Below are positions 3,415 to 64,000 of a stretch of 64,000 bases of DNA, piece after piece (position 1 is the stretch's first letter; the number at the start of each line of letters is the position of its first letter). Origin of the DNA: Verrucomicrobiota bacterium. GTDB taxonomy: Bacteria > Verrucomicrobiota > Verrucomicrobiia > Limisphaerales > VHCN01. The notes beneath the pieces are model-generated. The model ran no database searches and had not been told where the DNA came from. It saw only the letters and a list, made by a program, of their open reading frames with translations. Where the stretch lies: positions 66,268 through 130,267 of the forward strand of contig VHCN01000001.1 of NCBI GenBank assembly GCA_016871675.1, read 5' to 3'. The position numbers were made by a program, and so were the translations under genes.

Positions 3415-3420
3415 CGCCGG

Positions 3421-5066: not shown

Positions 5067-5072
5067 CCGGTA

Positions 5073-6443
5073 TTAGAACGAAAGCCCCGCGCCGATCTGG
5101 AAATAATCCTGCGCGTTGGCATCGGTCTTCGATGCGGTCGAGCCATTGAGGTTGTGGCGCCAGTCGAACTTGAGCACAAAGTTTGAATTCAAGAACCACG
5201 CGACGCCCGTGGTGACGAAGTCCTTGTTCGCGCGGCCGTTGTCCTCCTCGACGCCGGGCGTGGCGAGTCCGGTCTGCGTGACGATCGAGCTGTAGCGGAC
5301 GAAGGGCACGATGTCGGCGTCTTGCAAACGGCCGTTGCGCCACGCTTCGGGCGAGAGGTGATACGCGGCTTCGAGATACCAGCCGAAGATTGCGTCGCCG
5401 ACGTTGTCGGTTGTCGAGGTGTTGTTGTTCACCACGAGATTCTGCGGGCTGCCAATGTGCCAGTAGGCGAAGTCGCCGCGGAGTTCGAGGCCGGTCTTCG
5501 GCACGCGATACACAGCCTCGACGTCGAACAGGGCGAGCGTGGCGTTGGCCGCGGGTCCCTTGACTTGTGTGACGTAAAACGACGTGCTCGCGTCGAGTCC
5601 CGGCGGGCCGTGGTAACTCAGGCGGCCGGCGTAGGCGAGGCTGTTGACGTCCGCCCGGCGCGCGCGCGGCCGCGAATCGCGGACGCCGCCACGACCCGTG
5701 ATGCCGGGCTCTGCAAAGCCCGCGGGGCGCGTCGCCGTCGCGGCCGAACTCGGTGTCGCGATCGAATCCTCAAGCCCCGCCGAGAGCGTGAGTTTGTAAT
5801 CCAGCGAGTCGGTGAGCTTGCCGAACACGCTTACCGCCGGTTCGAACCACGTGCTCGGGATGATCTCGCGATACAGTTCCGGTCGCTCGGTCGAGTAGAA
5901 TGTTGTCGGTTCGTGATGGAGGTTGATGCGACCGACGGGCACGAGGTCGATGCCGAGCGAGCGGATGTTGAAGCGTTCGTGAAGCAGCAGGTCCACGTAG
6001 AACTGCTCGATTTCGAATGCGCCGTCGAAGCGGTTGCGCCCGCCGTTCACGGTTTCGTCCACGCCGCCGTGCTCAAACTCGATCTCGGAGTGAAACGAGA
6101 GCCAGTCATTGATCCGGTAGCTCGGCGCGAGCACATATCGGTGCGCGTCGAATGCGTTCGCACCGGACTCGGGAAACCGATACTTCGACTCGCCGTAGAA
6201 GCCGATCTTAAGCCCGGTGGCAGATGGTTCCCGGTCGCCCGCGTGCCCTCCGGCTTTGTTCGTCGTGCGCGCCGACTTCAGGCGATCAACTTCTTCGCGC
6301 AACGCGGCCACTTGCTTCTGCAACTCGGCGATGATGCTGGCTGTGTCATTCGTCTGCGCCTGCGAACACTGACCGCCGAGGCCATCAAGCATCAGGGCCG
6401 TGCCGAGGGGGCCGAGGAATCGCGAAACAAGGTTCGTGTTCAT
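5073..6443 (-). CDS. Outer-membrane porin-like beta-barrel with N-terminal coiled coil
   Basis: 456 aa. A signal-like N-terminus is followed by a heptad-like segment (IIAELQKQVAALREEVDRLK). Long stretches of alternating hydrophobic/polar residues follow, rich in aromatics and Gly. The protein ends in Phe (…GAGLSF), as many OMPs do. It is the first gene of the ApbE operon. Confidence 0.55.
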   Translation of the reverse strand: MNTNLVSRFLGPLGTALMLDGLGGQCSQAQTNDTASIIAELQKQVAALREEVDRLKSARTTNKAGGHAGDREPSATGLKIGFYGESKYRFPESGANAFDAHRYVLAPSYRINDWLSFHSEIEFEHGGVDETVNGGRNRFDGAFEIEQFYVDLLLHERFNIRSLGIDLVPVGRINLHHEPTTFYSTERPELYREIIPSTWFEPAVSVFGKLTDSLDYKLTLSAGLEDSIATPSSAATATRPAGFAEPGITGRGGVRDSRPRARRADVNSLAYAGRLSYHGPPGLDASTSFYVTQVKGPAANATLALFDVEAVYRVPKTGLELRGDFAYWHIGSPQNLVVNNNTSTTDNVGDAIFGWYLEAAYHLSPEAWRNGRLQDADIVPFVRYSSIVTQTGLATPGVEEDNGRANKDFVTTGVAWFLNSNFVLKFDWRHNLNGSTASKTDANAQDYFQIGAGLSF

Positions 6444-6457
6444 TGTTCGGAAGAATT

Positions 6458-6476
6458 GTTGTTGAGAATCAATCTC
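6458..6476. promoter_or_regulatory. Weak Fur-box-like site upstream of the porin/FMN-bind/ApbE operon
   Basis: gttgttgagaatcaatctc matches GATAATGATAATCATTATC at 13 of 19 positions by manual alignment. It lies in an unusually AT-rich 110-nt spacer, 15 nt upstream of the porin ATG. Confidence 0.2.
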
Positions 6477-6553
6477 AGGCGCGCGTTGAATTAGATGAGA
6501 CTGAGTCTCAGTGCAAGGATAATTTGCAAAACCACTTGCCCGGCGGAATCGGT

Positions 6554-7483
6554 TCAGATTTCGAAGTCCGAACGGCGTGGGGCGGCGGCGCCCTTGGCGC
6601 GCCCCTTTTTGTTGAGGACGCGGACTTTCACTTCTTCGCTCAACACGAGCGAGTGCGGTGGAACGGACGACGTGAGGAACACGTTCGCGGCGATCGTGCT
6701 GCCCTCGCCGACGATGGTGTCACCACCCATGATCGTCGCCCCCGCGTAAATCGTGACATGGTCCTCCAGAGTCGGATGGCGCTTCTGCCCTCGCAGCGCC
6801 TGCCCGCCTGAGAGAGAGCGCGCCACAAGACCGACACCTTGATACATCTTCACATGGTTTCCGATCACGCTGGTTTCGCCCACGACGGTTCCAGTGCAGT
6901 GATCCACAAAGAAGTGAGTTCCGATGCGCGCGCCGGGGTGAAGGTCCATGCCCGTGCGCCCGTGAGCCCACTCGGTCATGATGCGCGGGATGAGCGGGAC
7001 ATGGCTGAGGAACAGTTGGTGGGCGAGCCTTTGCACGGCAATCGCCTCCACGAACGGATACGCCACGATCACCTCGTCCTTGCTCAGGGCCGCGGGGTCA
7101 CCGTTGTATGCGGCTTCTGCGTCTGTCTGAAGGAGTTCACGCAAGGCCGGCAACTTGGCCAGGAACTCCACCGTCAGGCCGCGCGCCTCGGGCCGGAAGT
7201 CTCTTTTCTTCGACCCGGCGGGCGCGGCGTATTCGAGACTCTTGTAAATCTCGTCCTCGAGCCTGCCCAGCACGGAGTCCATCAACGCGGCCGTCTCGAC
7301 TTTCAGCTCGTAACTGTGGAGCGGCTTCTCATCGAAGAATCCCGGGAAAAGCAACCGCACCAAATCCACCGTGATGCCGGTGATGGCCGTCTTGCTCGGC
7401 AAGTTTTTGCCGTCGAGATGGTTGATGCCCCCGATGCGCGCGTAAGACGCGAGCAACTGGTTCGTGAGTTGCGTGACGTTCAC
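6554..7483 (-). CDS. cysE: Serine O-acetyltransferase-like hexapeptide acyltransferase (long form)
   Basis: The C-terminal left-handed beta-helix repeats are clear (GARIGTHFFVDHCTGTVVGETSVIGNHVKMYQGVGL…IYAGATIMGGDTIVGEGSTIAANVFL). The N-terminal helical domain is SAT-like. There is no ATG near the 5' end. I chose GTG at 7483 (VNVTQLTNQLL…), but the ORF stays open to a GTG at 7627. Confidence 0.7.
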   Translation of the reverse strand: MNVTQLTNQLLASYARIGGINHLDGKNLPSKTAITGITVDLVRLLFPGFFDEKPLHSYELKVETAALMDSVLGRLEDEIYKSLEYAAPAGSKKRDFRPEARGLTVEFLAKLPALRELLQTDAEAAYNGDPAALSKDEVIVAYPFVEAIAVQRLAHQLFLSHVPLIPRIMTEWAHGRTGMDLHPGARIGTHFFVDHCTGTVVGETSVIGNHVKMYQGVGLVARSLSGGQALRGQKRHPTLEDHVTIYAGATIMGGDTIVGEGSTIAANVFLTSSVPPHSLVLSEEVKVRVLNKKGRAKGAAAPRRSDFEI

Positions 7484-8014: not shown

Positions 8015-9955
8015 ATGAAGAAACTGTATCGCGTTTCGAGTTCAACGTTCAGAGTTCCAGGTTCGGAGTTCGGGGTTCAAGGTCTGGCGCGACATGGCGC
8101 GCGGCTCGCGCTCGCGCTCGCAGCGACAAGTGCCTTCGCGCAAGAGCCCACCAATCCGCCGGCCCGCCTGCAGGAAGTCGTCGTCACCGCCACGCGCACG
8201 GCCGAGCCGGCGGACCGCGTCGCAGCATCGGTCTCCGTCGTGACGCGCGCGGAGGCCGACGCGCGAGGCATCACGACACTCGCGGACGCGCTCGACCTCA
8301 TCAACGGCCTCGCCGTCGTGCGCACAGGCACGCCGGGCCAGACGACGACCGTGTTTTCGCGCGGCACGCAGGGCAAGCACACGTTGCTCACGATCGATGG
8401 CCGCCGCCAGACGCCGAACATCCTCGGCGGCTACGATTGGGCCAGCCTCACCCTCGACAACGTGGACCGCGTCGAAGTGATGCGCTCGCCCGTGTCGTCG
8501 CTTTACGGCGGCGAAGCAATCGGCGGTGTCGTGAATGCGCTCACGCGCAGCGGGCGCGGCCTTCGCGCACCCGAGCACGAAGTCGCGTTCGAGGCCGGAA
8601 GCTTCCGCACGTTCCGCGAAAGCCTCGCGACACGCGGCGCGACGGGGCCATGGGATTATGCGCTCAGCGCGTCGCGACAGGACTCGGATTACGACCGCGC
8701 GAACGATCGCTACCGACTCACCACGTTGCGCGGCTCGACCGGCTGGGAAGCGAACGACGCGGCGTATCTCGATTTGAAAGGCGCATTCCACCAGAGCGAC
8801 GCGGGCAGCCCGGGCTCGACGACCTTCCCCGATCCCGGCGCGTTCCTCCGGCGTGAAGTCGTGAATCTCTCGCCCGGCATCGAGTGGAATCCGTCCGATT
8901 CCATCGAGGCGCGCCTCTACTACGGCTTCGAGCACCAGTATCAACGCTCGGTGTTCACGCTATTCGGCGGCTCCGACGACCAGCAACGAAACGTCTCACA
9001 ACTCGTCGAAGGACAGTTGAACTGGACCGTCACCGACCGGTGGAAGCTCACGTTTGGCGCCGCGCTGCAAGACCTCACGTTCTCGCAAATCAACAACACG
9101 GGCGAGGAGGACATCCATCTCAACACGACGAGCTTCGGCCTTTACGCGCAGAGCCAGTGGAGTCCGCTGCCACGGGTCACGCTCGTGAATTCCGTGCGGC
9201 ACGATCACTACTCCGATTATCCGGGCGCGACCACGTGGCGGCAGGCGATGTCCGCGCGTGTCCCCGGAACCGAGACGCGCGTGTTCGCCGCGGTGGCGCG
9301 CGCGTTCAGCCCGCCGGCGCAGGGCGACCTCTTTTTCCCCGGCGTCTTCGGCTACAACGTCACGTTGCAACCCGAGAGCAGCTTCGGATGGGAGGCGGGA
9401 TTCGAGCAACCGCTCGCCGGCGGCCGACTCAAGCTCGGCGCGACATGGTTCCGGAATGAAATCGACAACCTCATCTCGTTCGACCCGACGCCGCGGCCGG
9501 GCGCGCCGTTCGGCGCGCCCGCGAACGTAGCCGGCGCTCTGACCGAAGGCGTCGAGGCGGGCGCATCGCTCAAGCCGTTCGACGGACTCGAAGCCCGCGC
9601 CAGCTACACGTATCTGACCGCCCGTGACCTCGCGACGACCTTGCGGCTTGTCCGGCGCCCGCGTCACACGGCCACGCTCGACGTGGCGGCTCGACCGATG
9701 AAGACACTCACCTTGAGCGCGGGCGCGCAACTCGTGAGCGGCCGCACCGACTTTTACACCGACCCATTTTTCACGACGACGCGCGAGCACGGGCAGGACT
9801 ACGTCGTGGTTCGCGCCGCGGCGCGATACCAGTTTACGGAACAGGCGCAGCTTTGGATTCGGGCGGAAAACCTCACCGACGTGAAATACGAGCAGGCCGC
9901 GCAGTTCCCCGCTCCGCGACTCGGGATCTTCGGCGGGTTCAAGCTCAGCTTCTAA
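8015..9955 (+). CDS. btuB: TonB-dependent outer-membrane receptor (BtuB-like, riboswitch-controlled)
   Basis: ATG at 8015 is preceded by aggag. It has a signal peptide and a TonB-box-like plug region (LQEVVVTATRTAE). The barrel sequence is typical and ends in Phe (…GGFKLSF). The TTG start at 7901 in the ORF track would overlap the riboswitch expression platform. Confidence 0.85.
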   Translation: MKKLYRVSSSTFRVPGSEFGVQGLARHGARLALALAATSAFAQEPTNPPARLQEVVVTATRTAEPADRVAASVSVVTRAEADARGITTLADALDLINGLAVVRTGTPGQTTTVFSRGTQGKHTLLTIDGRRQTPNILGGYDWASLTLDNVDRVEVMRSPVSSLYGGEAIGGVVNALTRSGRGLRAPEHEVAFEAGSFRTFRESLATRGATGPWDYALSASRQDSDYDRANDRYRLTTLRGSTGWEANDAAYLDLKGAFHQSDAGSPGSTTFPDPGAFLRREVVNLSPGIEWNPSDSIEARLYYGFEHQYQRSVFTLFGGSDDQQRNVSQLVEGQLNWTVTDRWKLTFGAALQDLTFSQINNTGEEDIHLNTTSFGLYAQSQWSPLPRVTLVNSVRHDHYSDYPGATTWRQAMSARVPGTETRVFAAVARAFSPPAQGDLFFPGVFGYNVTLQPESSFGWEAGFEQPLAGGRLKLGATWFRNEIDNLISFDPTPRPGAPFGAPANVAGALTEGVEAGASLKPFDGLEARASYTYLTARDLATTLRLVRRPRHTATLDVAARPMKTLTLSAGAQLVSGRTDFYTDPFFTTTREHGQDYVVVRAAARYQFTEQAQLWIRAENLTDVKYEQAAQFPAPRLGIFGGFKLSF

Positions 9956-52795: not shown

Positions 52796-54286
52796 TCAAT
52801 GATGTGTGGCGCCGGCGAGCGCAGCGGCGATCGGATCGAGCAGCAGGTCCGGCGCGCAGCCGAGCAGCACCACGCCGGCTGCGATCAGGCCCAATGCGAT
52901 CGTTGAGGCGGGCGGGACGGCGATCGGCGGCGCGTCTTCCGGGGCTTCCTCGACGAACGCCTGCTTGAGCACGAGCAGGTAGTAATAGAGCGACACCGCG
53001 CTCATCGCGATGGCGGCGATGACGAGCCAGAGCAAGCCGAGGTTTTTCGCCGCGCCCGCCGCGGCGACGAACACGTAAAACTTGCCGAAGAACCCCGCGA
53101 GCGGCGGGATGCCCGCGAGTGAAAGCAGGAAGATCATCATGCACACCGCGAGCATCGGCGAGCGGCGGCGCAGACCGGCGAAGTCCGCGAGGGTGGCGTC
53201 GCCGCCGCGCTCCATCACGCCCACCACGCCGAGCGCGCCGACCACCGTCAATCCGTAGGTCGCCACGTAGTAGAGCAGCGCGGAGACGCCGCGGTCGCCG
53301 TCGCCGAGGATGCCCAGCAGCGCGTAGCCCGCGTGCGCGACGGCGGACCACGCGAGCAGGCGCTTGACGCTCGTCTGCGCGATGGCGGCGAGGTTGCCAA
53401 GGATCATCGAGAGCAGCGCCACGGTGCAGAGCAATGGCGTCCAGCCCGCGGCCGCGTTGCGCCATGCGCCGCTGCCTTCCGCGCCCGCGAAGCCGGCCGT
53501 CAGGACCTTCGCCAGGAGCAGAAAGCTCGCGACCTTCGACCCGCCCGCGATGAGCGCGGCGGCGGGCGTGGGCGCGCCTTGATACGCGTCCGGCGCCCAC
53601 AGGTGGAACGGCACCGCGGCGATCTTGAACCCGAAGCCCATGAGAGTGAGCACGAGCGCGACGGCGAGCATCGGGTCGAACGCGCGCGCGTGCATCGCCC
53701 GCGCGATTTGCACGAGGTCGATCGAACCCGTGAGCCCGTAGAGGAGGCTGAGGCCGAAGAGCATGAAGGCCGCAGCCATGCCGCCGAAGAGGAAATACTT
53801 GAGGGCGGCCTCGGCTGAGCGGGGGTTGCGTTTGTTGAAGGCGGCGAGCGTGTAGAGCGACAGGCTCGCGAGTTCGAGCGACACGAAGATCATCAGCAGG
53901 TTCTCCGTGCTCACCATGAACATCATCCCCACGGTCGCGAGCAGCACGAGCGCGACGAACTCGCCCGCGTGATCCGTGAAGTCCGCGTCCACCGCCAGCA
54001 GCAGGGTGAACGCCGCGAGCGCGAGCAGCACGAACTTGGTCACGCGCCCGAGCGGCTCGACCACAAGCATGCCTTCCGCAACGCGCCCGTGCGCGCCCGA
54101 CTCGGCCATGAAGAACCCCGCCGCGAAGAAGCCGAGGAACGCGAAGAGGCCGGCGACGAGCATTCGGTTGCGGACCGGTTCTCCGCGCATGACGGTGAGG
54201 TCGATCGCCAGCACGGCCAGCGCGGCGAGCACCACGAGCGTCTCGGGCGCGGCGAGCTTGAGCAGGGCGAGGTAGTCCGCACTCAT
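52796..54286 (-). CDS. nuoN: NADH-quinone oxidoreductase subunit N
   Basis: 496 aa. FKIAAVPFHLWAPDAYQGAP and LSLAGIPPLAGFFGKFYVF are NuoN/ND2 signatures. The start overlaps the upstream stop (ATGA). Confidence 0.9.
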   Translation of the reverse strand: MSADYLALLKLAAPETLVVLAALAVLAIDLTVMRGEPVRNRMLVAGLFAFLGFFAAGFFMAESGAHGRVAEGMLVVEPLGRVTKFVLLALAAFTLLLAVDADFTDHAGEFVALVLLATVGMMFMVSTENLLMIFVSLELASLSLYTLAAFNKRNPRSAEAALKYFLFGGMAAAFMLFGLSLLYGLTGSIDLVQIARAMHARAFDPMLAVALVLTLMGFGFKIAAVPFHLWAPDAYQGAPTPAAALIAGGSKVASFLLLAKVLTAGFAGAEGSGAWRNAAAGWTPLLCTVALLSMILGNLAAIAQTSVKRLLAWSAVAHAGYALLGILGDGDRGVSALLYYVATYGLTVVGALGVVGVMERGGDATLADFAGLRRRSPMLAVCMMIFLLSLAGIPPLAGFFGKFYVFVAAAGAAKNLGLLWLVIAAIAMSAVSLYYYLLVLKQAFVEEAPEDAPPIAVPPASTIALGLIAAGVVLLGCAPDLLLDPIAAALAGATHH

Positions 54287-55776
54287 TGCAGGCCTCCCTT
54301 CCGCAACGCGTCGAAGAGCGGCGAGGCGAAGCTCGGCACGATCAAGTCGAGCAGCAGCCGGGGGTGCAGGCCGATGAGCACGGTCGTGCCCAGCAGCAGC
54401 GCGGCTCCAAGCCGCTCGGGGATGGTGATGGGTTCGAACGGGTGGCTGTGGCCGTCCTCTTGGTTGGGCGTGGTGCCCGCTTCATCCGAAAAGAACGCCC
54501 TTTGCAAGGCGCGCAGCGTGTAGGCGACACCGATCACGATGCCCACGCCCGATGCAACCGCGAAGCCCGGCAGCGACTGCCACGCGCCGATGAGCACTTG
54601 CAGTTCGGCGATGAATCCGCTGAATCCCGGCAGGCCCATGCTCGCCACCGCGGCGACGGCGAACGTGACCGCGGCAAATGGCAGCGCCTTGAGCAGGCCC
54701 ATGCCTTCGAGCACGGTCAGTTCGCGCGTGTGCGTGCGGTCATAGACCATCCGGCCCACGACGCCGAACAGCAGCCCCGCGATGATGCCGTGCGAGAACA
54801 TCTGCAGCACCGCGCCCGACAGGCCGATGGTGTTGAGCGTCACCAACCCGAGCAGCACGAAGCCCATGTGGCTCACGCTCGAGTAGCCGATGACGAATTT
54901 GAAATCCTTCTGTGTGAGCGCGACCATCGCCCCGCCCACGATGCCGATGACGGCGAGCAGCGCGAGTTCGTGCTGCCACGCCTTCAGGCCGAGCGGGAAA
55001 AGCGTCATCGCCACGCGCAGGCAGCCGTAGGCGCCAAGCTTCATCACCACGCCCGCCAGCAGCATCGAGGCGGCGGTCGGCGCGGCCACGTGGCCCGTGG
55101 GCGCCCACGTGTGAAATGGCCACAGGCCCGCGAGAATGGCGAACCCCACGAACACAAGCGGGAACGCCCACACTTGGAATGACTCGGGGAACGGAAACTT
55201 CGCCATCTCGACCAGGTCAAACGTCTTCGCGCCGGACACGATGAACGCCGCGACGAGCCCGACGAGCACCATCGCGCTGCCCACGAACGAGTAGAGCGCG
55301 AGCTTCATCGCGCCGTATTCCTTGCGCGTCGAGCCCCACACGGCGATGAGGAAGTATTTCGGGATGATCGCCAGCTCGTAGAACACAAACAGCGTGAACA
55401 GGTCGAAGCTCAGGAACACGCCATACACGCCGCCAATCAGCGCGAGGAAGAACGCGAAGAACTCCTTCGCGCGATGCTCAACGTTCCATGAGAAGAGGAT
55501 GCCCGACACCGCCGCGAGGCCCGTGAGCAGCACGAGCACGAGGCTGATGCCATCGGCGGCGAGGTGATACCCGATGCCGAGCGACCTCACCCACGGGACC
55601 TTCGTGATGGTGACGATGCCCTCCGGCGCGCCGACCACTCCCGCGAGCGCGCACAAGAGCCCGCCAATCGCCGACATGAGCGCGACCGCCCGCGCCGCGC
55701 GCGCGTCACCCGCCGGCAGGAGCATCAGCACCAGCACGCCGAGGAAGGAGAGGTAGATGGTCCAGGCGAGAATCAT
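54283..55776 (-). CDS. nuoM: NADH-quinone oxidoreductase subunit M, paralog A (divergent)
   Basis: 497 aa with FVFYELAIIPKYFLI (TM5 Glu), PFHTWAPTGHVAAPTAASMLLAGVVMKLGAYG and GLPGFSGFIAEL. It is M/ND4-type, but Leu replaces the conserved Lys 7 residues before the HxW motif. Confidence 0.85.
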   Translation of the reverse strand: MILAWTIYLSFLGVLVLMLLPAGDARAARAVALMSAIGGLLCALAGVVGAPEGIVTITKVPWVRSLGIGYHLAADGISLVLVLLTGLAAVSGILFSWNVEHRAKEFFAFFLALIGGVYGVFLSFDLFTLFVFYELAIIPKYFLIAVWGSTRKEYGAMKLALYSFVGSAMVLVGLVAAFIVSGAKTFDLVEMAKFPFPESFQVWAFPLVFVGFAILAGLWPFHTWAPTGHVAAPTAASMLLAGVVMKLGAYGCLRVAMTLFPLGLKAWQHELALLAVIGIVGGAMVALTQKDFKFVIGYSSVSHMGFVLLGLVTLNTIGLSGAVLQMFSHGIIAGLLFGVVGRMVYDRTHTRELTVLEGMGLLKALPFAAVTFAVAAVASMGLPGFSGFIAELQVLIGAWQSLPGFAVASGVGIVIGVAYTLRALQRAFFSDEAGTTPNQEDGHSHPFEPITIPERLGAALLLGTTVLIGLHPRLLLDLIVPSFASPLFDALRKGGLQ

Positions 55777-55781
55777 CGGCG

Positions 55782-57326
55782 CTAGAACTTCAAGTGCTCC
55801 ACCAGTCGCGTCACGGTCGCGCTCGTCAGCGCGGTGATGAATTGCGGGTAAACACCGAGCGCGAACATCAGCAGCACGGCGGGCACGACCACCAGGCGTT
55901 CCGCGGCCGTGAGGTCGGGAAGCGATTTCCAGCGCTCATTGAGCGGGCCATTGAAGACGCGCTGCAACACCGTCAGCAAGAAGATGGCGGTGACGAGCAG
56001 CCCGACCATCGAGACCGCGGCCGACCAGCCCGACAGCGCAAACGCACCTTTGAAAATGAGGAACTCGCCGACAAATCCGCTCAAGCCCGGCAATCCGAGC
56101 GACGCGAAGAGCGAGATGCCCATCAGCCCGCAAAAGACCGGCACCACCTGGCGCAACCCGCCGAAGTCGTCCAGCCCGCGCAGGCCGCCGCTGCGTTCCT
56201 CGAGGAACGCCACGAAGCAGAACAGCGCCGCCGCGGCAAGCCCGTGGCTGAACATTTGCAGCAGCACGCCGCTGAGCGCCGCGGCTTGTTCGACCGCCGC
56301 GCCGCCGGACTTCACCACCACGAAGCACCCGAGCAGGCAGTAGCCGAGGTGGTTGATGGACGAGTAGGCAAGCACGCGCTTGAGGTCGCGCTGCGCGAAC
56401 GCCGCGAACGCGCTGAACACGATGGTCGCGACGGCGAGCCACAGCAGCGGCGTCAGCACGGAGCGCATTGGCTCGGGAAAAATCGGCAGCAGGATGCGCA
56501 GCAGGCCATACACGCCCATCTTCGACATCACGCCCGTGAGCAGCATCGTGACGCTCGACGGCGCCTCGGCATACGCCGCAGGCAGCCACGTGTGGAATGG
56601 CATCAACGGCACCTTCACCGCGAAGCCGAGCAGCGCGCCGACGAAGAGCAGCAGTGCGAGCTGTTGCCCGGTCAGCCCGCCCCACGCGAGCGTCTCGCCG
56701 AGGAGGGGGACGAGCTTGCCCGTGCGCGCGAGCGCGGCGAGTTCGAGGAAGTCGAACGTGCGCGCGGCCTGGAACAGCGCCAGGAACGCCAGCAGCAGCG
56801 CCACGCTGCCGACCATCGTGTAGATGAAGAACTGCGTCGCCGCCGCGCCTCGTTGCGGTCCGCCCCAGAGCTTCACGAGGAAAAACGCCGGCACCAGCGC
56901 CAGTTCGTAGAACAGGAACCAGTGGAAGAAGTTCATCGCCGTGAACGTGCCCATCAGGCCCGCCTCAAGGAGCAGCACGAGCGCGAAGAACAGCGGCACG
57001 CGCTCCTGGATGCCACGCGATGCGAGGATGGCCATCGGCGTGACGAGCGCGGTGAGCGCGACCATGAGCAGGCTCAAACCGTCCATGCCGAGCTTGTATT
57101 CGATGCCGAGCGTGGGAATCCACGTGTGCTTCTCGATGAACTGCAGTCCCGCCGCGGCGTTGTCGAAGGCGAACCACAGCGCGAGCGTGAGCGCGAGCGT
57201 GAGCAGCGAGACGGTGATCGCGAGGCCGCGGGCGAGCCGCTGTTGCGGGCGTTCAAGCCCGAGCAGCACCGCGCCGCCGAGCAAGGGCAGGAGCGTGAGA
57301 AGGGTGAGGATGGGAAGGCTCTTCAT
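55782..57326 (-). CDS. nuoM: NADH-quinone oxidoreductase subunit M, paralog B (canonical)
   Basis: 514 aa with FLFYELALVPAFFLV, FAVKVPLMPFHTWLPAAYAEAP, MSKMGVYG and GLPGLSGFVGEF. ATG 57326 overlaps the nuoL stop. Confidence 0.9.
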   Translation of the reverse strand: MKSLPILTLLTLLPLLGGAVLLGLERPQQRLARGLAITVSLLTLALTLALWFAFDNAAAGLQFIEKHTWIPTLGIEYKLGMDGLSLLMVALTALVTPMAILASRGIQERVPLFFALVLLLEAGLMGTFTAMNFFHWFLFYELALVPAFFLVKLWGGPQRGAAATQFFIYTMVGSVALLLAFLALFQAARTFDFLELAALARTGKLVPLLGETLAWGGLTGQQLALLLFVGALLGFAVKVPLMPFHTWLPAAYAEAPSSVTMLLTGVMSKMGVYGLLRILLPIFPEPMRSVLTPLLWLAVATIVFSAFAAFAQRDLKRVLAYSSINHLGYCLLGCFVVVKSGGAAVEQAAALSGVLLQMFSHGLAAAALFCFVAFLEERSGGLRGLDDFGGLRQVVPVFCGLMGISLFASLGLPGLSGFVGEFLIFKGAFALSGWSAAVSMVGLLVTAIFLLTVLQRVFNGPLNERWKSLPDLTAAERLVVVPAVLLMFALGVYPQFITALTSATVTRLVEHLKF

Positions 57327-59353
57327 TTCCCCAACCCCCAAGTCACGAGCAGCACGAGTGCGGCGAGCGCGAGTCCGAGCACGCGAAGGTAGTTCTGCAC
57401 CTTGCCGTCCTGCGTGCGCGACGCGGCATCCGAGCCGGCGCGCACGCCGCGGCAGCCTTCGTCGAAGCCGAAGTTGATCACGTATTCGTCGAAGAACCGC
57501 CCGATCCACGACACGCCAAGCGTGAGCAGCGAAACAAACATCACCACGCCGCCCCACACGAAGCGGTCGAACACATCACTCGCCGCCGACGCGAGCGCGT
57601 TCCAGCGGATGACCGTGGCCTCGTAAAGTTCATCCACGCGGAACTTGTCGCGAAGCAGCGCGAACAGGGCGGGCTGCTTCGTTTCGAGCGGGTCGGGGTC
57701 ATCCGCGGACGCGGCGGGCTTGCGGCCGTAGATCATCCAGCCTGCGGTGATTCCAGCGAGCGCGACAAGGGTTGAGACGACCATCAGCGGCACCGCGCCA
57801 GAGGCCGGTGAGCCGTCGTGCCCCGCGCCGAGGTATTGCTGGAAGGCCGGCCACCACGGCGTGCCGACGAAGCCGAGCAACGCCGCAAACACGGCGAGAA
57901 TCACGAGCGGCACGGTCATCACGGTGGGTGACTCGTGCGGTTCGCCGTGCGGGTGCGCGTGGTGCTTGCCGAAGAACACGTAAGTGACCTGCCGCGTCAT
58001 GTAGAACGCCGTGAGCAGCGCGCCGAACAGGCCGAGATAGAAGGGGCCGGACGAAACCCAACCGTGAGCCGAGTGGAGGATCTCGTCCTTGCTCCAGAAT
58101 CCCGCGAGCGGGAACACGCCCGCCAGCGCCATCATGCCGACGGCGTAGGTCGCGAACGTCACCGGCATGTATTTCTTCACGCCGCCCATGCGACGGATGT
58201 CCTGCTCCTCGTGGCAGCCGTGGATCACCGAGCCGGCGCCGAGGAAGAGCAGCGCCTTGAAGAACGCGTGCGTGATGAGATGGAACATCCCGGCCGCCAC
58301 GCCGCCGACACCGAGGCCCATCATCATGAAGCCGAGTTGGGAAACGGTGGAGTAGGCGAGGATGCGCTTGATGTCCGTCTGCGCGACCGCGATGAGCGAC
58401 GCGAAGACGGCCGTAAGCGCGCCGACCCAGGTGACGACTTGAAGCGCCGTCGTCCCGCCGACTGGCGCAAGCCCGGTGCTCATGAGTGGAAAGACGCGCG
58501 CCACGAGGAACACGCCCGCCGCCACCATCGTCGCCGCGTGGATGAGCGCGCTCACGGGCGTGGGGCCTTCCATCGCGTCCGGCAGCCAGACGTGCAACGG
58601 AAGCTGGCCGGACTTGCCGGCGGCGCCGCAGAAGATAAGCAGCGCGATGACGGTGCTCACGGCCATGCCACCCGCGAGGCTTGCGCCGACGAGTTTCGCC
58701 AGCGCGGACTGTTCCATGCACCCGAGGCCGTTGTCGTAGAAGAGCAGCGTGCCGGTTTCCTTGTAGAGCCACACGAGGCCGAGGAAGAAGCCGATGTCGC
58801 CGATGCGCGTGGTGATGAAGGCCTTCTTCGCCGCCGCCGCCGCGCTGGGCTTGTGGAACCAGAAGCCGATGAGCAGATACGACGCGAGGCCCACCAGCTC
58901 CCAGCAGATGAACAGCAGCAGCAGGCTGTTCGCGATGACCACGCCGAGCATCGCCGCGGCGAACAGCGAAAGGAACGTGAAGAAGCGCGTGAAGTTCTCG
59001 TCGCGCGCCATGTAGCCGACGCTGTAGATGAAGATGAGCAGGCCGACGAAGCTCACCATCACGAGCATCACCGCCGCGAGCGGGTCGAGAACGAAGCCGA
59101 GCCGCACGAGGTCGCCCGGGGAGTCGCCGAATTGAAACCACGCAAAGTTGCTTTCTTCGCGGAACACGCCCTCGCCCGTGTGCTGGAGCGTGGCCGCGAA
59201 CGCAATGAGCGAGAGCGCGAGCGAGCCGGCCATCGAGCCGATGGCGAGCGCGGCCGAGAGCGTCCGTTGCGGACGCTTGCATAGCGCGCTCAATCCCGCC
59301 GCCACGAGCGGCAGCAGCGGGATAAGCCAGACGTAGTTGGGGATCCAGGTCAT
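57323..59353 (-). CDS. nuoL: NADH-quinone oxidoreductase subunit L (elongated, 676 aa)
   Basis: WELVGLASYLLIGFW, AAGKSGQLPLHVWLPDAMEGPTPVSALIHAATMV and a C-terminal lateral-helix region (…VDELYEATVIRW…NYLRVLGLALAALVLLV) match NuoL. ATG 59353 was chosen. Confidence 0.9.
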   Translation of the reverse strand: MTWIPNYVWLIPLLPLVAAGLSALCKRPQRTLSAALAIGSMAGSLALSLIAFAATLQHTGEGVFREESNFAWFQFGDSPGDLVRLGFVLDPLAAVMLVMVSFVGLLIFIYSVGYMARDENFTRFFTFLSLFAAAMLGVVIANSLLLLFICWELVGLASYLLIGFWFHKPSAAAAAKKAFITTRIGDIGFFLGLVWLYKETGTLLFYDNGLGCMEQSALAKLVGASLAGGMAVSTVIALLIFCGAAGKSGQLPLHVWLPDAMEGPTPVSALIHAATMVAAGVFLVARVFPLMSTGLAPVGGTTALQVVTWVGALTAVFASLIAVAQTDIKRILAYSTVSQLGFMMMGLGVGGVAAGMFHLITHAFFKALLFLGAGSVIHGCHEEQDIRRMGGVKKYMPVTFATYAVGMMALAGVFPLAGFWSKDEILHSAHGWVSSGPFYLGLFGALLTAFYMTRQVTYVFFGKHHAHPHGEPHESPTVMTVPLVILAVFAALLGFVGTPWWPAFQQYLGAGHDGSPASGAVPLMVVSTLVALAGITAGWMIYGRKPAASADDPDPLETKQPALFALLRDKFRVDELYEATVIRWNALASAASDVFDRFVWGGVVMFVSLLTLGVSWIGRFFDEYVINFGFDEGCRGVRAGSDAASRTQDGKVQNYLRVLGLALAALVLLVTWGLGK

Positions 59354-59362
59354 CTTGGTTTC

Positions 59363-59432
59363 GAAACCACGAAGGCACGAAGGACACAAAGCGGCGCTTC
59401 CGCGTTCGTGACCTTCGCGGCTTCGTGGTTCA
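59363..59432. repeat. Imperfect ~25-bp-arm hairpin built from ccacgaagg octamers in the nuoK-nuoL spacer
   Basis: The left arm is gaaaccacgaaggcacgaaggacac. The right arm is cgtgaccttcgcggcttcgtggttc. aaccacgaag pairs perfectly with cttcgtggtt, and further partial pairing follows. The element lies inside the operon transcript. Confidence 0.45.
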
Positions 59433-59441
59433 AGTCGGTGT

Positions 59442-59753
59442 TCATCCCTTCATCGAGTCAATCTTCCCGAGGTCGGTCGTCTTGAAGTGCCGGTAAATCG
59501 CGAGGATGAGCGCGAGGCCGACGGCGGCTTCGGCGGCGGCGATGGCGATGCTGAAGATGGCGAACATCACGCCGGTGGCTGCCTCGGGGTTCGGGCTGAA
59601 GCGCCAGAAGGCGATGAAGTTCAGGTTCGCCGCGTTGAGCATCAGCTCAATGCCGATGAGCACGAGGATGGCGTTGCGCCGTGTGAGCGCGCCCGCAAGC
59701 CCGATGCTGAAGAGCAGGGCGGAGACGATGAGGTAGGCGGGAAGAGGAGTCAT
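59442..59753 (-). CDS. nuoK: NADH-quinone oxidoreductase subunit K
   Basis: 103 aa. LFSIGLAGALTRRNAILVLIGIELMLNAANLNF is typical of NuoK/ND4L. Confidence 0.9.
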   Translation of the reverse strand: MTPLPAYLIVSALLFSIGLAGALTRRNAILVLIGIELMLNAANLNFIAFWRFSPNPEAATGVMFAIFSIAIAAAEAAVGLALILAIYRHFKTTDLGKIDSMKG

Positions 59754-59858
59754 GGCGTTGAGCAGGGGGGCGGGGGTGAAAAGGGTCGGGGGAGATTTCT
59801 CGCATGCTCCCTTTCGCCCGCTCTCCGCTGCGTTGAGTCTTGTGCGCCCATCATCGGA

Positions 59859-60383
59859 TTACTTCGTTGCCGCGCCACTGGCCTTCTCGTGCATCGCGAT
59901 GATCACCGCGCCGATCAAGGCGGCGGTGAGCAGCAGGGCGATGACTTCGAGCGGCAGCACGTAGTCGTTCATGAGCTTCGCGCCGATGTGCTTCACGGCC
60001 ACAGCTTGTCTCGCAACGGCGTCGGACTTGGGCGCCCACGATCGTTCCGAGGTCCACGACAGGAGGGCCGTCGAGAGCGTCACGAACACGACCACGGCGA
60101 CCAGCGGCCCGAACAGCCACGCGCGCGAGGGCGCGCCTTGTGCCGCCGGGTCGTCGCCGCGCGTGAGCAGGATGGCGAACACAATGAGGATGGCCACCGC
60201 GCCGATGTAAACGAGGACCTGCGTGAAGCCGACGAACTCGGCGTCGAGCGTGAGGAACAGCCCGGCGAGGCCCGCGAGCGTGACGGCGAGGCAAAGCGCG
60301 CAGTGCACGAGGTTGCGCAGGCTCATCGCGGCGACGGCCGAGACGAGCGTGACGAGCGCGAGGATGAGGAAGGCGGGGGTCAC
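59859..60383 (-). CDS. nuoJ: NADH-quinone oxidoreductase subunit J
   Basis: 174 aa. …AEFVGFTQVLVYIGAVAILIVFAILL is the NuoJ/ND6 signature. The start codon is GTG. Confidence 0.85.
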   Translation of the reverse strand: MTPAFLILALVTLVSAVAAMSLRNLVHCALCLAVTLAGLAGLFLTLDAEFVGFTQVLVYIGAVAILIVFAILLTRGDDPAAQGAPSRAWLFGPLVAVVVFVTLSTALLSWTSERSWAPKSDAVARQAVAVKHIGAKLMNDYVLPLEVIALLLTAALIGAVIIAMHEKASGAATK

Positions 60384-60390
60384 GGGGAAT

Positions 60391-60425
60391 GGCCGGTGGC
60401 CGATGGCTGATGGCCGATGGTCGGA
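60391..60425. repeat. Five tandem heptamers in the nuoJ-nuoH spacer
   Basis: The array reads ggccggt ggccgat ggctgat ggccgat ggtcgga. It fills most of the 49-nt gap between the nuoH stop and the nuoJ start. Confidence 0.4.
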
Positions 60426-60432
60426 GTGTTGA

Positions 60433-61629
60433 TCATTCCGCGAAGGTGTATTTGCGCCTGATCAGGTGGCCGGATTCTGTCAGCGCGCGGCCGAGCATCA
60501 CGTAGGGGATGGCGAGCATCGCGGCGCAGAGCAGCCAGCGGGCGGGGCCGGGCGTCATGAAGCGCCACGCGCCCGCGACAAGGATGTTCAGCAGCGCAAG
60601 CGGCAGCATGAACTTCCACGCCAGCCCCATGAGCTGGTCAGCCCGCAGCCTCGGCACGGTGCCGCGAATCCAGATGAACAACACGATGAGCGCGCCGAGC
60701 TTCGCGAAGAACCACGCCCACGACGGCACGAATTCCAGCCCCGCACAGGGCGCGTGCCAGCCGCCGAGAAACAGCGTGATGCCCAGCCCGCTCATCGCGA
60801 ACAGGCCGAGGTATTCGCCGAGGAAGAAGAGCGCGAACTTGAACCCGCTGTATTCGGTGAAATAGCCCGCGATGAGCTCGGACTCCGCCTCGGGCATGTC
60901 GAACGGCGAGCGGTTCGCCTCCGCGGTCGCCGCCGTGAGGAAAAGCAGGAAGCCCGCGAAGCCCCAGGGTGTGAAGAGAAACCAGTTCGCCAGTCCCCAC
61001 GACGTGAAGCCCGCCTGCGCCTCGACTATGCGCGTGGGCGTGAGCGAACCGGCGATCATCACGGCGGTGAGGGTCGAGAGCAGCAGCGGCACTTCATAGC
61101 TGACCATTTGCGCGATCGCCCGGATCGCTCCGAGCAGCGAGTATTTGTTGCGGCTCGACCAGCCCGCCATGAACACGCACAGCTCCGTGCTCGCGCCGAC
61201 CGCGAAGAAGAACAGCAGCCCGCACTCGAGGTCCAGCGGCGCCATGTTGCGGCCGTAGGGAATCACGGCGAAGGCGAGCAGCGCGGGGATCATGATGACC
61301 ACGGGCGCGAGGAAGTGAACGACGCGGTCGGCGGCGCGCGGGACGATGTCCTCCTTGGCGATCATCTTCATCCCGTCGGCGATGAACTGGCCGAAGCCGA
61401 ACAGCCGGATGTCGGTGAACGGGATGCCCACGCGGTTCGGCCCGTAGCGGTTCTGGATGCGGCCGAGTCCCTTGCGCTCGATGACCGTCGTGAGGCCGAA
61501 CAGCAGCGGGAACACCGCGAGAATGGCCGTGATGGAGACGAGGATGGAGACGAGCGCCTGCTGTTCCGCCGGGAACAGCGCGACAATCAGTTGCTTGATC
61601 GCGATGGGGAGGGATTCGAGGGAGTCCAT
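60433..61629 (-). CDS. nuoH: NADH-quinone oxidoreductase subunit H
   Basis: ERKGLGRIQNRYGPNRVG, ADGMKMIAKEDIVP and GWSSRNKYSLLGAIRAIAQMVSYEVP match NuoH/ND1. ATG 61629 was chosen. The Pro/Arg-rich N-terminal extension in the ORF track was rejected. Confidence 0.9.
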   Translation of the reverse strand: MDSLESLPIAIKQLIVALFPAEQQALVSILVSITAILAVFPLLFGLTTVIERKGLGRIQNRYGPNRVGIPFTDIRLFGFGQFIADGMKMIAKEDIVPRAADRVVHFLAPVVIMIPALLAFAVIPYGRNMAPLDLECGLLFFFAVGASTELCVFMAGWSSRNKYSLLGAIRAIAQMVSYEVPLLLSTLTAVMIAGSLTPTRIVEAQAGFTSWGLANWFLFTPWGFAGFLLFLTAATAEANRSPFDMPEAESELIAGYFTEYSGFKFALFFLGEYLGLFAMSGLGITLFLGGWHAPCAGLEFVPSWAWFFAKLGALIVLFIWIRGTVPRLRADQLMGLAWKFMLPLALLNILVAGAWRFMTPGPARWLLCAAMLAIPYVMLGRALTESGHLIRRKYTFAE

Positions 61630-61804
61630 CAGGCGGAATGCGGGGTGCAGAGTGCGGAAAGCCGCATCGCCAACGGAAGCGCGCGGCGACAACGGAAGTT
61701 CCCCATCGTAATCCTTCGGCGGCGGAGGGGGAGACTCGGATTGCGTGGGGGCAACGCACGCAGGGCAACCCGCGTGCTTCGGGGATGCGTTTCGACCGGA
61801 CTGC

Positions 61805-62491
61805 TCATGGCTTGGCGGCCTCCTTTGTTGGAGCCGCGGCGGGCGTTGCGGGGGCAGCAGGCTGCGCCACGGTGGAACCAACGGGAGCTGTTGCCGATGC
61901 GGGCGCTGCGGCTTTCGCCGCGGCTGCAGCGGCGGCGGCTTTCGCCTTCGCCTCAGCGTCGGCCTTTGCCTTTGCGACTTCGGCGACGCGCTTGGCGTCG
62001 ATCTCCGAGGCGTCCGTCGGATGCAGATGCTGGAAGTGCGAGTTGGGCTTGGCGAGCTTCTCCTTGTCCAGCAGCAGGCCGCCGAAGCGGTCGGTGGTCG
62101 AGAGCTCAAATTCCTGGTCCATCTTGATCGCCTCGAACGGGCAGACTTCGACGCAAATCTGGCAGCTCATGCACACGGAGATGTCGATGTCGAAGACTGC
62201 CGGGTAAAGCTGCGGCTTGCCGACATGGTCGGGTTTCTTGTCCTTCGACTTCTCGATGTAGATGCACTGCGGCGGGCATTCCTTCTCACAAATCTGGCAC
62301 GCGACGCAGCGCAAACCCTTCTGCCAGTCGTCGCCGTCATAGACGAGGAACGGAAACTGCCGCGTGTTTTCCTTCGGCGTGTCGCGCTCCTCGGGATATT
62401 GCAACGTGGTAAGCCGCTCGTCGGACACGTAGCTGCCGGCGAAGTTCCTCGCCGTTTCGACCATGCCTTTGATGAGTCCGGTGCCGAGCAT
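61805..62491 (-). CDS. nuoI: NADH-quinone oxidoreductase subunit I with Ala/Lys-rich C-terminal tail
   Basis: Two ferredoxin motifs are present (CVACQICEKECP and CMSCQICVEVCP). The protein is 228 aa, and the last ~60 aa are low complexity (AKAKADAEAKAKAAAAAAAAKAAAPA…). Confidence 0.9.
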   Translation of the reverse strand: MLGTGLIKGMVETARNFAGSYVSDERLTTLQYPEERDTPKENTRQFPFLVYDGDDWQKGLRCVACQICEKECPPQCIYIEKSKDKKPDHVGKPQLYPAVFDIDISVCMSCQICVEVCPFEAIKMDQEFELSTTDRFGGLLLDKEKLAKPNSHFQHLHPTDASEIDAKRVAEVAKAKADAEAKAKAAAAAAAAKAAAPASATAPVGSTVAQPAAPATPAAAPTKEAAKP

Positions 62492-62499
62492 GGGTGTGG

Positions 62500-62937
62500 T
62501 CAGTTTTGACGCGGCGGCGCAAGGGCGCAAAGGTTCGGGGAACTCTGGGTCTCGTCGAAGAACGTGTGCCACCAGTTGCAACTGCCGGCGAGCGCGCTCA
62601 CGAGACGGCCGCGCACGGCGGTCACACGCACGGGCGAGAGATGCACCGCGGGGTCGGGCGCCGGATGGAATTCGCACACGGTCACGTCGCCGAGCGTGCG
62701 CTGCCACGCGGGCTTGTGCGCGGCGAGAAGCTTGTCGAGCGGGTCGCCCTGCCGGAACGCGCCGGATTCGAACTCGCGCCACACGGGATGACACTCCTTC
62801 GCGAGCAGGCGGAGCGTTTCGGAGCGCGCCGAGGAGCGCAAGGCGGCAGTGACAGCCCAGAGGGCGCATGCGACCAACAGGGCGCTTGCGCCGGCGCGGG
62901 CGAGCTTTCGTGCGACGTTGGTGCGGGTGAAGTTCAT
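62500..62937 (-). CDS. Hypothetical 145-aa membrane-anchored protein inserted between nuoD and nuoI
   Basis: The ATG lies 14 nt after the nuoD stop, and the stop lies 8 nt before the nuoI ATG. The N-terminal anchor is GASALLVACALWAVTAAL. Third-position GC is high (~85% by hand count). There are five Cys residues. I recognise no family. Confidence 0.6.
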   Translation of the reverse strand: MNFTRTNVARKLARAGASALLVACALWAVTAALRSSARSETLRLLAKECHPVWREFESGAFRQGDPLDKLLAAHKPAWQRTLGDVTVCEFHPAPDPAVHLSPVRVTAVRGRLVSALAGSCNWWHTFFDETQSSPNLCALAPPRQN

Positions 62938-62951
62938 TCGCGCGCGTGATG

Positions 62952-64000
62952 CTAGCGGTCCACTTCCCCGAGGACAATATCCACGCTGCCGAGAATGATC
63001 ACCACGTCGGCGACGGTCTGGCCGAGGCACATGTCCTCGAGCACGGTGAGATTCACGAAGCTCGGCGGCCGCACGCGGTAGCGATACGGATTCGGCGAGC
63101 CGTCGCTGATGAGATAGAAGCCCAGCTCGCCCTTCGGCCCCTCGATGCGGCCGTAAGCCTCGCCCGCCTTCGGGCGGAAGCCGCGCAGCTTCGCCTTCGG
63201 GTCCACGATGGGGCCGGCGGGAATGTCCGCGAGCGCCCTGCGGAGAATCTTCAGTGACTCGCGCATTTCAAGCAGCCGGATCATGTAGCGGTCAAACACG
63301 TCGCCGTGCGCGCCGAGCGGCACTTTGAACTCGAAGCGGTCGTAAATGCCGTAACGGTCCACCTTGCGAATATCGTAGTTCACGCCGCTCGCGCGCAGCA
63401 TCGGGCCCGTGATGCCGGCGCTCACGGCGAGTTCCTTCGGCAGCACGCCCACGCCCTGCGTGCGCGCGATGAGGATTTCATTCTCCGACAGCAGCGCCTC
63501 GAACTCGTCGAGGAATCCCGGATGCCCCTCGACGACGGCCTTCGCCTGCTCGATCCAGCCCGCGGGCAGGTCGCACCGGCAGCCGCCGAAGCGCATGTAG
63601 TTGCACATCATCCGCGCGCCGGTGAGCGACTCGATAAGGTCGAGCGCCTTTTCGCGCTCGCGGAATGCATACATCAGCGGCGTGCCGAGCGCGCCCATGT
63701 CCTGCAGGAGAAAGCCGATGAGGCAGGTGTGATTGACGAGGCGCGTGAGTTCGGCGGTGATGACCCGGATGTATTCCGCGCGCTCGGGCACGGCGAGGCC
63801 GGCGAGCTTTTCGACCGCGAGCGCGTAGGCCCAGTTGTTCGTGAGCGAGCAGAAGTAATCGAGCCGGTCCGTGTAGGGCATCGAGCCGAGGTAGCTCGTG
63901 TTCTCGGCTATCTTCTCGTGGTTGCGGTGGAGGTAGCCGAAGACAGGCTTGAGCTTCACCACGCGCTCGCCGTCGAGCACCACGTCCATGCGGAACACGC
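62952..64000 (-). CDS. nuoD: NADH-quinone oxidoreductase subunit D (5' end outside the window)
   Basis: [19 protein letters not shown] and the C-terminus …[41 protein letters not shown] match NuoD/49 kDa. The frame is still open at the window edge. Confidence 0.95.

Follow-up and report, generated by a model that had tools for sequence, protein, structure and literature searches.

Introduction

Complex I homologues of the '2M' class, defined by Chadwick et al. (2018, ISME J 12:2668), are described in papers citing that work as having a second nuoM gene and a 26-amino-acid insertion in NuoL (PMC9040806); we draw on six such papers for what is known of the class (PMC9040806, PMC6606698, PMC7117926, PMC8004040, PMC11636273, PMC7419157). 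Here we analyze a nuo operon of a lake Verrucomicrobium that occupies one end of a 64,000-nucleotide stretch of contig VHCN01000001.1 (assembly GCA_016871675.1, positions 66,268 to 130,267), hereafter called the window. The rest of the window carries housekeeping genes. Upstream DNA beyond the window end was read from a contig that covers this flank (L097), and other L numbers denote the loci used for comparison.

The 2M operons of Chloroflexus, Anaerolinea and Acidobacterium capsulatum show the same second nuoM between nuoL and nuoN, an insertion of about 26 amino acids (aa) in the lateral helix (HL) of NuoL, the same 12 genes without nuoEFG and a nuoI linked to nuoD (PMC9040806, PMC7117926, PMC8004040, PMC11636273). 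In A. capsulatum (PMC11636273) and Chloroflexus aggregans (PMC8004040) the 12-gene operon stands beside a canonical 14-gene operon and is reported to be transcribed. Unlike the described 2M operons, the one analyzed here is split by a cluster of nitrite oxidoreductase (NXR) type between nuoC and nuoD and by an additional gene, termed gene X, between nuoD and nuoI. The 2M enzyme of Nitrospira (clade 3) likewise has four antiporter-like subunits and an elongated NuoL and lacks both NuoE and NuoF; its host possesses a periplasmic NXR, and reverse operation linked to ferredoxin has been proposed for the enzyme (PMC6606698). However, the Nitrospira cluster reportedly lacks nuoH as well, its NXR is encoded elsewhere and the host here is a Verrucomicrobium.

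Cyanobacterial and chloroplast NDH-1 is likewise devoid of NuoEFG, and its subunit NdhF1 is the best match of the window NuoL in the PDB (T. elongatus, 452 bits). The electron donor of NDH-1 is ferredoxin. NDH-1 differs in having three antiporter-like subunits per complex, the NdhL-S subunits specific to oxygenic organisms and the gene order H-I-J-K. The canonical 14-subunit enzyme (E. coli Nuo, T. thermophilus Nqo) has a homologous core and shares the key residues of NuoB, NuoD, NuoL, NuoN and one NuoM; in comparison, the present locus has no N-module (NuoEFG, the FMN/NADH module), one extra M, an HL longer by 26 residues and nuoI before nuoH. Extra pump modules and HL insertions are also known from 'Ca. 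Manganitrophus' Complex_I_3 and the rhizobial 'green' complex I, but there two MrpD-like subunits replace NuoL, whereas here NuoL is normal save for the insertion (PMC9040806). NuoL insertions of this kind occur in other complex I versions of 'Ca. Manganitrophaceae' as well (PMC9040806). No structure of a 2M complex I was present in a 2026 copy of the PDB, in which the best matches of NuoL and of the second NuoM were canonical enzymes, and no report of one was found in the searchable literature, in agreement with an earlier model-made annotation of the window (the sequence-only reading).

A 2M complex I operon without NuoEFG

Ten tightly packed open reading frames (ORFs) run on the minus strand from position 52796 to the window end (Table 1), and every nuo ORF was assigned to its subunit with Pfam and NCBIfam profiles. 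We propose, with a probability of about 0.78, that these ORFs specify the membrane arm, and a portion of the quinone module, of a complex I homologue of the 2M class that has four antiporter-like subunits and no NuoEFG. Judged by its sequence, the locus is a 2M complex I: two NuoM-type genes (nuoM1 and nuoM2) lie between nuoL and nuoN, and HL carries an insertion of about 26 residues. The sequence-only reading had placed it in this class, had listed the order nuoD, a 145-aa ORF, nuoI, H, J, K, L, M, M and N, and had counted four antiporter-like subunits rather than three. The coordinates and lengths of the ORFs agree with that list, and the profiles identify L, M1, M2 and N as the four.

The core is complete, with nuoD to nuoN in the window and nuoA, nuoB and nuoC upstream in L097, giving 12 core subunits (NuoA, B, C, D, H, I, J, K, L, M1, M2 and N). 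No ORF of the window matched E. coli NuoE, NuoF or NuoG, which bears out their reported absence between nuoD and nuoH, and no homologue was found in about 17 kb upstream of the window end either. The place directly upstream of nuoABCD, where their presence would have spoken against an EFG-less operon, is free of them; farther upstream of nuoA, a divergent lptF/G gene is followed by sensor kinases.

To place the operon among its relatives, one genome per GTDB species was scanned with the window NuoL, and the gene order around the 80 loci obtained was tabulated from ORFs and BLASTP. The series L-M1-M2 was found in 49 of the 80 loci, with N next in 45 of the 49, and none of these 49 2M loci contained E, F or G. 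Twenty-nine 2M loci had the order D-I-H and none had H-I, while the one-M operons matched in the same scan, several of them with EFG, all showed the canonical H-I order and a short NuoL. The position of nuoI before nuoH, which the sequence-only reading had picked out, is therefore a trait of the whole clade and not a local rearrangement. About 45 loci from Acidobacteriaceae, several verrucomicrobial orders and Chloroflexota had the order A-B-C-D-I-H-J-K-L-M1-M2-N; in Chthoniobacterales, ABCDI is divergent from HJKLM1M2N. This order is likely ancestral for the Verrucomicrobiota/Acidobacteriaceae/Chloroflexota clade. Both class and clade were already known. The scan shows the clade to be large and uniform.

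NuoL carries a 26-residue insertion in its lateral helix

We aligned 16 NuoL proteins from two-M operons with 11 from one-M operons, including that of E. coli, using MAFFT and the HL boundaries given in PMC3274701. In E. coli NuoL, this amphipathic helix lies between transmembrane helices (TM) 15 and 16, with K551 at mid-helix, P564-N566 in contact with NuoM and TM16 starting at about Y590 (PMC3274701). A single clean indel places residues 603-628 of the window NuoL after E. coli residue 567, within HL. Every one of the 16 2M-type NuoL has the insertion and every one of the 11 1M-type proteins is without it; the span between two conserved anchor motifs measured 73-75 aa in all of the former and 44-49 aa in all of the latter. 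From D574 to the C terminus we counted 103 residues, compared with 72 in E. coli. The earlier estimate, about 104 and 75 from the D-E-L-Y motif onwards, was thus close, and its suspicion that the extra length sits in the transverse helix agrees with the alignment.

By our own estimate, 26 helical residues at 1.5 Å each amount to about 39 Å, so that the added stretch is roughly as long as one antiporter-like subunit is wide. An AlphaFold2 model built on a 59-sequence alignment predicted, with moderate confidence, a continuous helix over residues 570-634 followed by TM16 at 651-673. The channel residues of NuoL were all kept (D186, K247, H272, H358, H362, K366, K422 and D423).

NuoL proteins of 691-727 aa, as long as the 2M type, were also seen with one M gene adjacent in three loci of Anaerolineae and Zixiibacteriota (NuoL matches L072 10001-12160, L074 10001-12022 and L077 10001-11947). 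Either M2 is encoded elsewhere in these organisms or the long helix exists without a fourth module.

The two NuoM proteins belong to anciently separated lineages

Both M proteins scored far higher with the NuoM model TIGR01972 (NDH_I_M; M1 475 bits, M2 423 bits) than with models for MrpD (about 164), HyfB (about 140) or NuoN (132-142). A neighbour-joining tree rooted with NuoN put both inside NuoM, in two old lineages. M1 grouped with E. coli-type NuoM. The neighbours of M2 were the sole NuoM proteins encoded in several 11- and 14-gene operons from Verrucomicrobiia, Firmicutes and a deltaproteobacterium. Profile scores and tree reject an Mrp or Hyf origin of either protein, a relationship that would have undermined the 2M assignment, and no mrp or hyf genes were found in the locus.

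M1 and M2 share 35% identity with each other, compared with about 34% between either of them and E. coli NuoM. A recent tandem duplication of nuoM is rejected by this distance, which is about as large as that to E. coli NuoM, and also by the separate clades, both of which are shared with single-M enzymes. The description of the pair as tandem NuoM paralogs hence holds as far as two adjacent NuoM-type genes are concerned but is misleading as to their origin. Chloroflexota 2M sequences adjoined those of Verrucomicrobiota and Acidobacteriaceae in both the M1 and the M2 subtree, which would fit a single origin of this 2M clade.

The quinone module and the site of electron input

The cysteines of cluster N2 in NuoB and the quinone-site residues His43 and Tyr92 of NuoD are conserved. 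NuoI ends in a tail: residues ~160-228 (61808-62014) consist of an Ala/Lys-rich segment with the motif AEAKAKA and a Pro/Ala-rich end. At variable length, this tail recurs in virtually every related 2M locus, and it might serve for docking or tethering where electrons enter. Without an N-module, the complex would exchange electrons with ferredoxin or another low-potential carrier at the face formed by NuoI, NuoB and NuoD.

We wondered whether the operon might instead encode an ordinary NADH:quinone oxidoreductase, to which another, canonical nuo operon of the same genome lends NuoE, NuoF and NuoG. Such pairs of operons do exist, since A. capsulatum and C. aggregans each have a 2M operon together with a complete 14-gene operon (PMC11636273, PMC8004040), and verrucomicrobial 14-gene operons with EFG were present among our loci (L062, L064, L071, L079). 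On the other hand, E, F and G were missing from each of the 2M loci scanned, the charged NuoI tail specific to the clade suggests a different docking surface, and we found no report of an N-module shared between two complexes in the literature covered. Borrowing of NuoEFG is unlikely on this evidence.

An NXR-type cluster separates nuoC from nuoD

The upstream DNA was located through an exact protein match of the alpha subunit described below. Directly upstream of nuoD and on the same strand, outside the window, it carries a six-gene periplasmic NXR-type cluster (L097 8442-17330), and only upstream of this cluster do nuoC, nuoB and nuoA follow. The full-length nuoD occupies L097 17421-18599. 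The operon seen by the sequence-only reading is thus correct for its D-to-N layout and incomplete with respect to this interruption beyond the window.

The cluster shows the hallmarks of a periplasmic NXR of the anammox/Nitrospira type, namely an NxrA-like Mo-bisPGD subunit with a twin-arginine (TAT) signal, an NxrB and an NxrC-like haem b subunit. The best solved homologue is the Kuenenia stuttgartiensis NxrABC (PDB 7B04), which matched alpha over residues 6-1143, its full length (7b04_B, 1731 bits), beta (7b04_A, 581 bits) and the C-terminal half of gamma (7b04_C, 115 bits). In contrast to the Kuenenia enzyme, gamma is fused here to an N-terminal dihaem cytochrome c domain, whose best solved relative is 6h5l chain B ('Conserved hypothetical cytochrome protein'), and the cluster encodes two extra proteins, one of 185 aa and a conserved one of 302 aa with HExxH and CxxC motifs. 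All matching NCBIfam models of the type II dimethyl sulfoxide (DMSO) reductase family stayed below their own cut-offs. Since gamma has no membrane anchor, a soluble periplasmic enzyme with c-type cytochromes as electron partners is probable.

A misassembly of the NXR junction is rejected, as the same arrangement was found in three independent assemblies (JGI 3300020197, JGI 3300020200 and ENA ERZ27247963) and the consecutive accessions MBM3875193-207 give an identical order in the NCBI metagenome-assembled genome. The insertion is not a conserved trait either, which follows from the relatives L118, L103 and L104 and from five stand-alone NXR-like clusters. L118, the closest relative found (NuoD 96% and NuoI 92% identical), reads B-C-D-X-I-H-J-K, with nuoC adjoining nuoD and no NXR. 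L104 (NuoL 82% identical, same upstream synteny) carries at its C/D junction a gene for a 93-aa protein paired with a DUF6036 gene (3581-4410), and at K/L a PIN gene paired with one for an 81-aa protein on the opposite strand (9258-9883). In L103, from a lineage at 79% identity, a gene for a 1955-aa PD40-like protein lies at D/I (1223-7090). The junctions of the nuo operon are insertion hot spots, and the operon tolerates large insertions there. We suppose that two later insertions split the ancestral operon without damage: that of gene X between D and I and, more recently, that of the six NXR-type genes between C and D, on the same strand and probably co-transcribed.

Could the NXR-type cluster and the 2M complex I work together as a single unit? 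Nitrite oxidation might be combined with reverse flow through a five-proton complex I to reduced ferredoxin, driven by the proton-motive force as proposed for Nitrospira, or a ferredoxin-fed complex I might give quinol for periplasmic nitrate reduction. The cluster sits inside the operon at 81 nt from nuoC and 90 nt from nuoD without a terminator-like site in the gaps, and this geometry, same strand and short gaps, makes co-transcription with the nuo genes probable. The close match to Kuenenia NXR, the combination of NXR with 2M complex I in Nitrospira (PMC6606698) and the Crp/FNR-type regulators, NnrS and pyruvate:ferredoxin oxidoreductase (PFOR) near the NXR-like clusters of relatives point the same way. 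Yet C adjoins D in the closest relative, unrelated genes (the DUF6036 pair, the PIN module and the 1955-aa protein) occupy such junctions in sister lineages, the five other verrucomicrobial NXR-like clusters lie away from nuo genes, and no direct quinone link of periplasmic NXR is known. We therefore consider a functional unit quite unlikely. The placement of the cluster may be incidental and speaks for an operon that tolerates insertions, not for one built as a unit.

Close homologues of alpha (80-87% identical) in other Verrucomicrobia belong to stand-alone clusters of the same internal order that are not near nuo. Crp/FNR-type regulators, NnrS and molybdenum-cofactor genes were seen near the stand-alone clusters L094 (1-7984), L096 (1707-8196) and L100 (10199-14891), and one stand-alone NXR-like cluster lies beside PFOR and acetyl-CoA synthetase. 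Such surroundings suggest anaerobic respiration of nitrate more than an autotrophic, nitrite-oxidising way of life. In the window and about 17 kb of upstream DNA, we saw no genes for autotrophy. The 302-aa protein may be a maturation factor; verrucomicrobial NXR-like clusters end with its conserved gene, the products having 300-323 aa in L096, L100 and L102.

Proton-path residues and a proposed mechanism

M1 retains all key residues (E141, K238, H245, K269, H326, H361 and E421), as does NuoN (E138, K163, K221, K251 and K402). M2 keeps the TM5 and TM12 glutamates (E134, E391), the TM8 lysine (K246) and the connecting histidines (H222, H303, H329). At the position of the TM7 lysine (E. coli K234), M2 has Leu215 (55132-55134), as confirmed by alignment to the Paracoccus and E. 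coli NuoM of solved structures, both of which have lysine. One of the four modules is hence predicted to lack the canonical Glu-Lys pair.

In the mechanism that we propose, the physical order of the antiporter-like subunits would be N-M2-M1-L, and about five instead of four protons would be moved per two electrons, or consumed when the enzyme runs in reverse. Several points weigh against this proposal. We infer that both M subunits are assembled and that the stoichiometry is five protons, no 2M enzyme having been characterised in biochemical or structural terms. Ferredoxin rather than NADH as the partner would be a further step of the same indirect kind, and so would a coupling of complex I to NXR. 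In every solved antiporter-like subunit compared, the TM7 lysine pairs with the TM5 glutamate; given that M2 is without it, pumping by this subunit may not be assured. The AlphaFold2 model of NuoL had a mean predicted local distance difference test (pLDDT) score of 69.8, falling to 40-54 over residues 621-650. As regards a single transcript, scans with promoter and terminator consensus sequences gave chance-level counts.

M2 might then not pump at all but act as a structural spacer or have a regulatory role, and the stoichiometry would stay at four. What suggests this is the leucine in place of the TM7 lysine, which M2 shares with 58 of 62 M2-type sequences. However, the same leucine occurs in the sole, and necessarily working, NuoM of one-M operons (L050, L056-58, L061-64, L073, L078-79), and since these enzymes have it, it is a trait of the lineage and not a sign of decay. 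The other path residues of M2 listed above are kept, and the TM6 lysine K158 is likewise conserved in 58 of 62 sequences of the lineage. We regard a mere spacer as very unlikely and return to the four-module enzyme as the preferred reading. That the whole operon is decaying, with the nuo genes left as relics after two interrupting insertions and a fast-evolving gene X, is dismissed in view of intact frames throughout, conserved catalytic and channel residues, the same arrangement in at least four assemblies and purifying selection on the nuo genes, as judged from strain differences that are all synonymous in nuoD, nuoI, nuoJ and nuoK and absent from nuoH.

The locus adds no new class. What is new are the old, separate M1 and M2 lineages, the M2 without its lysine, the gene X family and the embedded NXR-type cluster, which offers a handle on the tie between a high-stoichiometry complex I and nitrite or nitrate redox chemistry outside Nitrospira. 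More generally, 2M enzymes, with their fourth module and a helix longer by one module width, provide an experiment of nature on the coupling of one redox reaction to several distant pumps. A bolder view, which we consider decidedly unlikely, would hold that the NXR genes inside the operon of a five-proton complex I without N-module form an adaptive, co-expressed respiratory module and, separately, that M2 works without the TM7 lysine. If this were true, nitrite oxidation with reverse flow to ferredoxin would mean that an organism outside the known lineages of nitrite oxidisers lives by this reaction or, alternatively, the Verrucomicrobium would perform ferredoxin-driven, high-yield nitrate respiration; a working M2 would be a naturally occurring departure from the Glu-Lys gating pair that is considered essential if modules are to be coupled.

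Gene X is a fast-evolving passenger

Gene X encodes an N-terminal membrane anchor and a domain of about 90 aa with ECHPVW and SCTW..FFD motifs. An exhaustive HMMER search recovered 133 representative homologues (E<=1e-3), a family size that rejects a chance ORF or orphan. No homologue was found between D and I by local tblastn in about 40 related loci. The G+C content at third codon positions (GC3) of the gene is 0.84. Strain differences comprised five non-synonymous and three synonymous changes, and the L118 counterpart is 69% identical next to flanking genes at 92-96%. A role as accessory subunit of complex I was rejected, as 16 loci of the family lie on metagenome contigs without nuo neighbours, many of these contigs being short. 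Gene X is a real, fast-evolving passenger gene and not an established complex I subunit.

Layout of the operon

Table 1. Features of the nuo operon (window coordinates) and of the NXR-type cluster upstream of it (coordinates on contig L097).
Feature	Coordinates	Strand	Basis or remark
nuoD, 3' part, residues 45-392 of 392 aa	62952..64000	-	PF00346 and NuoD NCBIfam models; cut by window end
gene X, 145 aa	62500..62937	-	no Pfam or NCBIfam match
nuoI, 228 aa, two 4Fe-4S motifs, Ala/Lys/Pro-rich C-terminal tail	61805..62491	-	NuoI NCBIfam and Fer4 Pfam
nuoH, 398 aa	60433..61629	-	PF00146, 363 bits
nuoJ, 174 aa, GTG start	59859..60383	-	PF00499
nuoK, 103 aa	59442..59753	-	PF00420
nuoL, 676 aa	57323..59353	-	NF005141, 641 bits
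NuoL lateral-helix insertion, 26 residues (603-628, VVMFVSLLTLGVSWIGRFFDEYVINF)	57470..57547	-	MAFFT alignment
nuoM1, 514 aa, E. coli-like NuoM lineage	55782..57326	-	TIGR01972, 475 bits; tree; residues
nuoM2, 497 aa, second NuoM lineage	54283..55776	-	TIGR01972, 423 bits; tree; residues
nuoN, 496 aa, final operon gene	52796..54286	-	TIGR01770, 385 bits; residues
gamma, 520 aa, periplasmic, two cytochrome c domains and EB_dh haem b domain	L097 8442-10004		
alpha, 1154 aa, TAT-signal molybdopterin subunit	L097, NXR-type cluster		TIGR01409
185-aa protein	L097, NXR-type cluster		
beta, 423 aa, four-cluster iron-sulfur subunit	L097, NXR-type cluster		
NarJ/TorD-type chaperone	L097, NXR-type cluster		
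302-aa protein, HEFTH (HExxH) and C-terminal CxxC...CxxC	L097 16422-17330		no Pfam match

Within the window, L/M1 and M2/N overlap by 4 nt, and short spacers separate M1 from M2 (5 nt), D from X (14 nt) and X from I (8 nt); the remaining junctions measure 49-175 nt. The ORF downstream of nuoN is convergent. Consensus promoter and terminator scans detected nothing in the nuoI-nuoH spacer (61630-61804), which at 175 nt is the longest gap of the operon and has room for an internal promoter or regulatory element.

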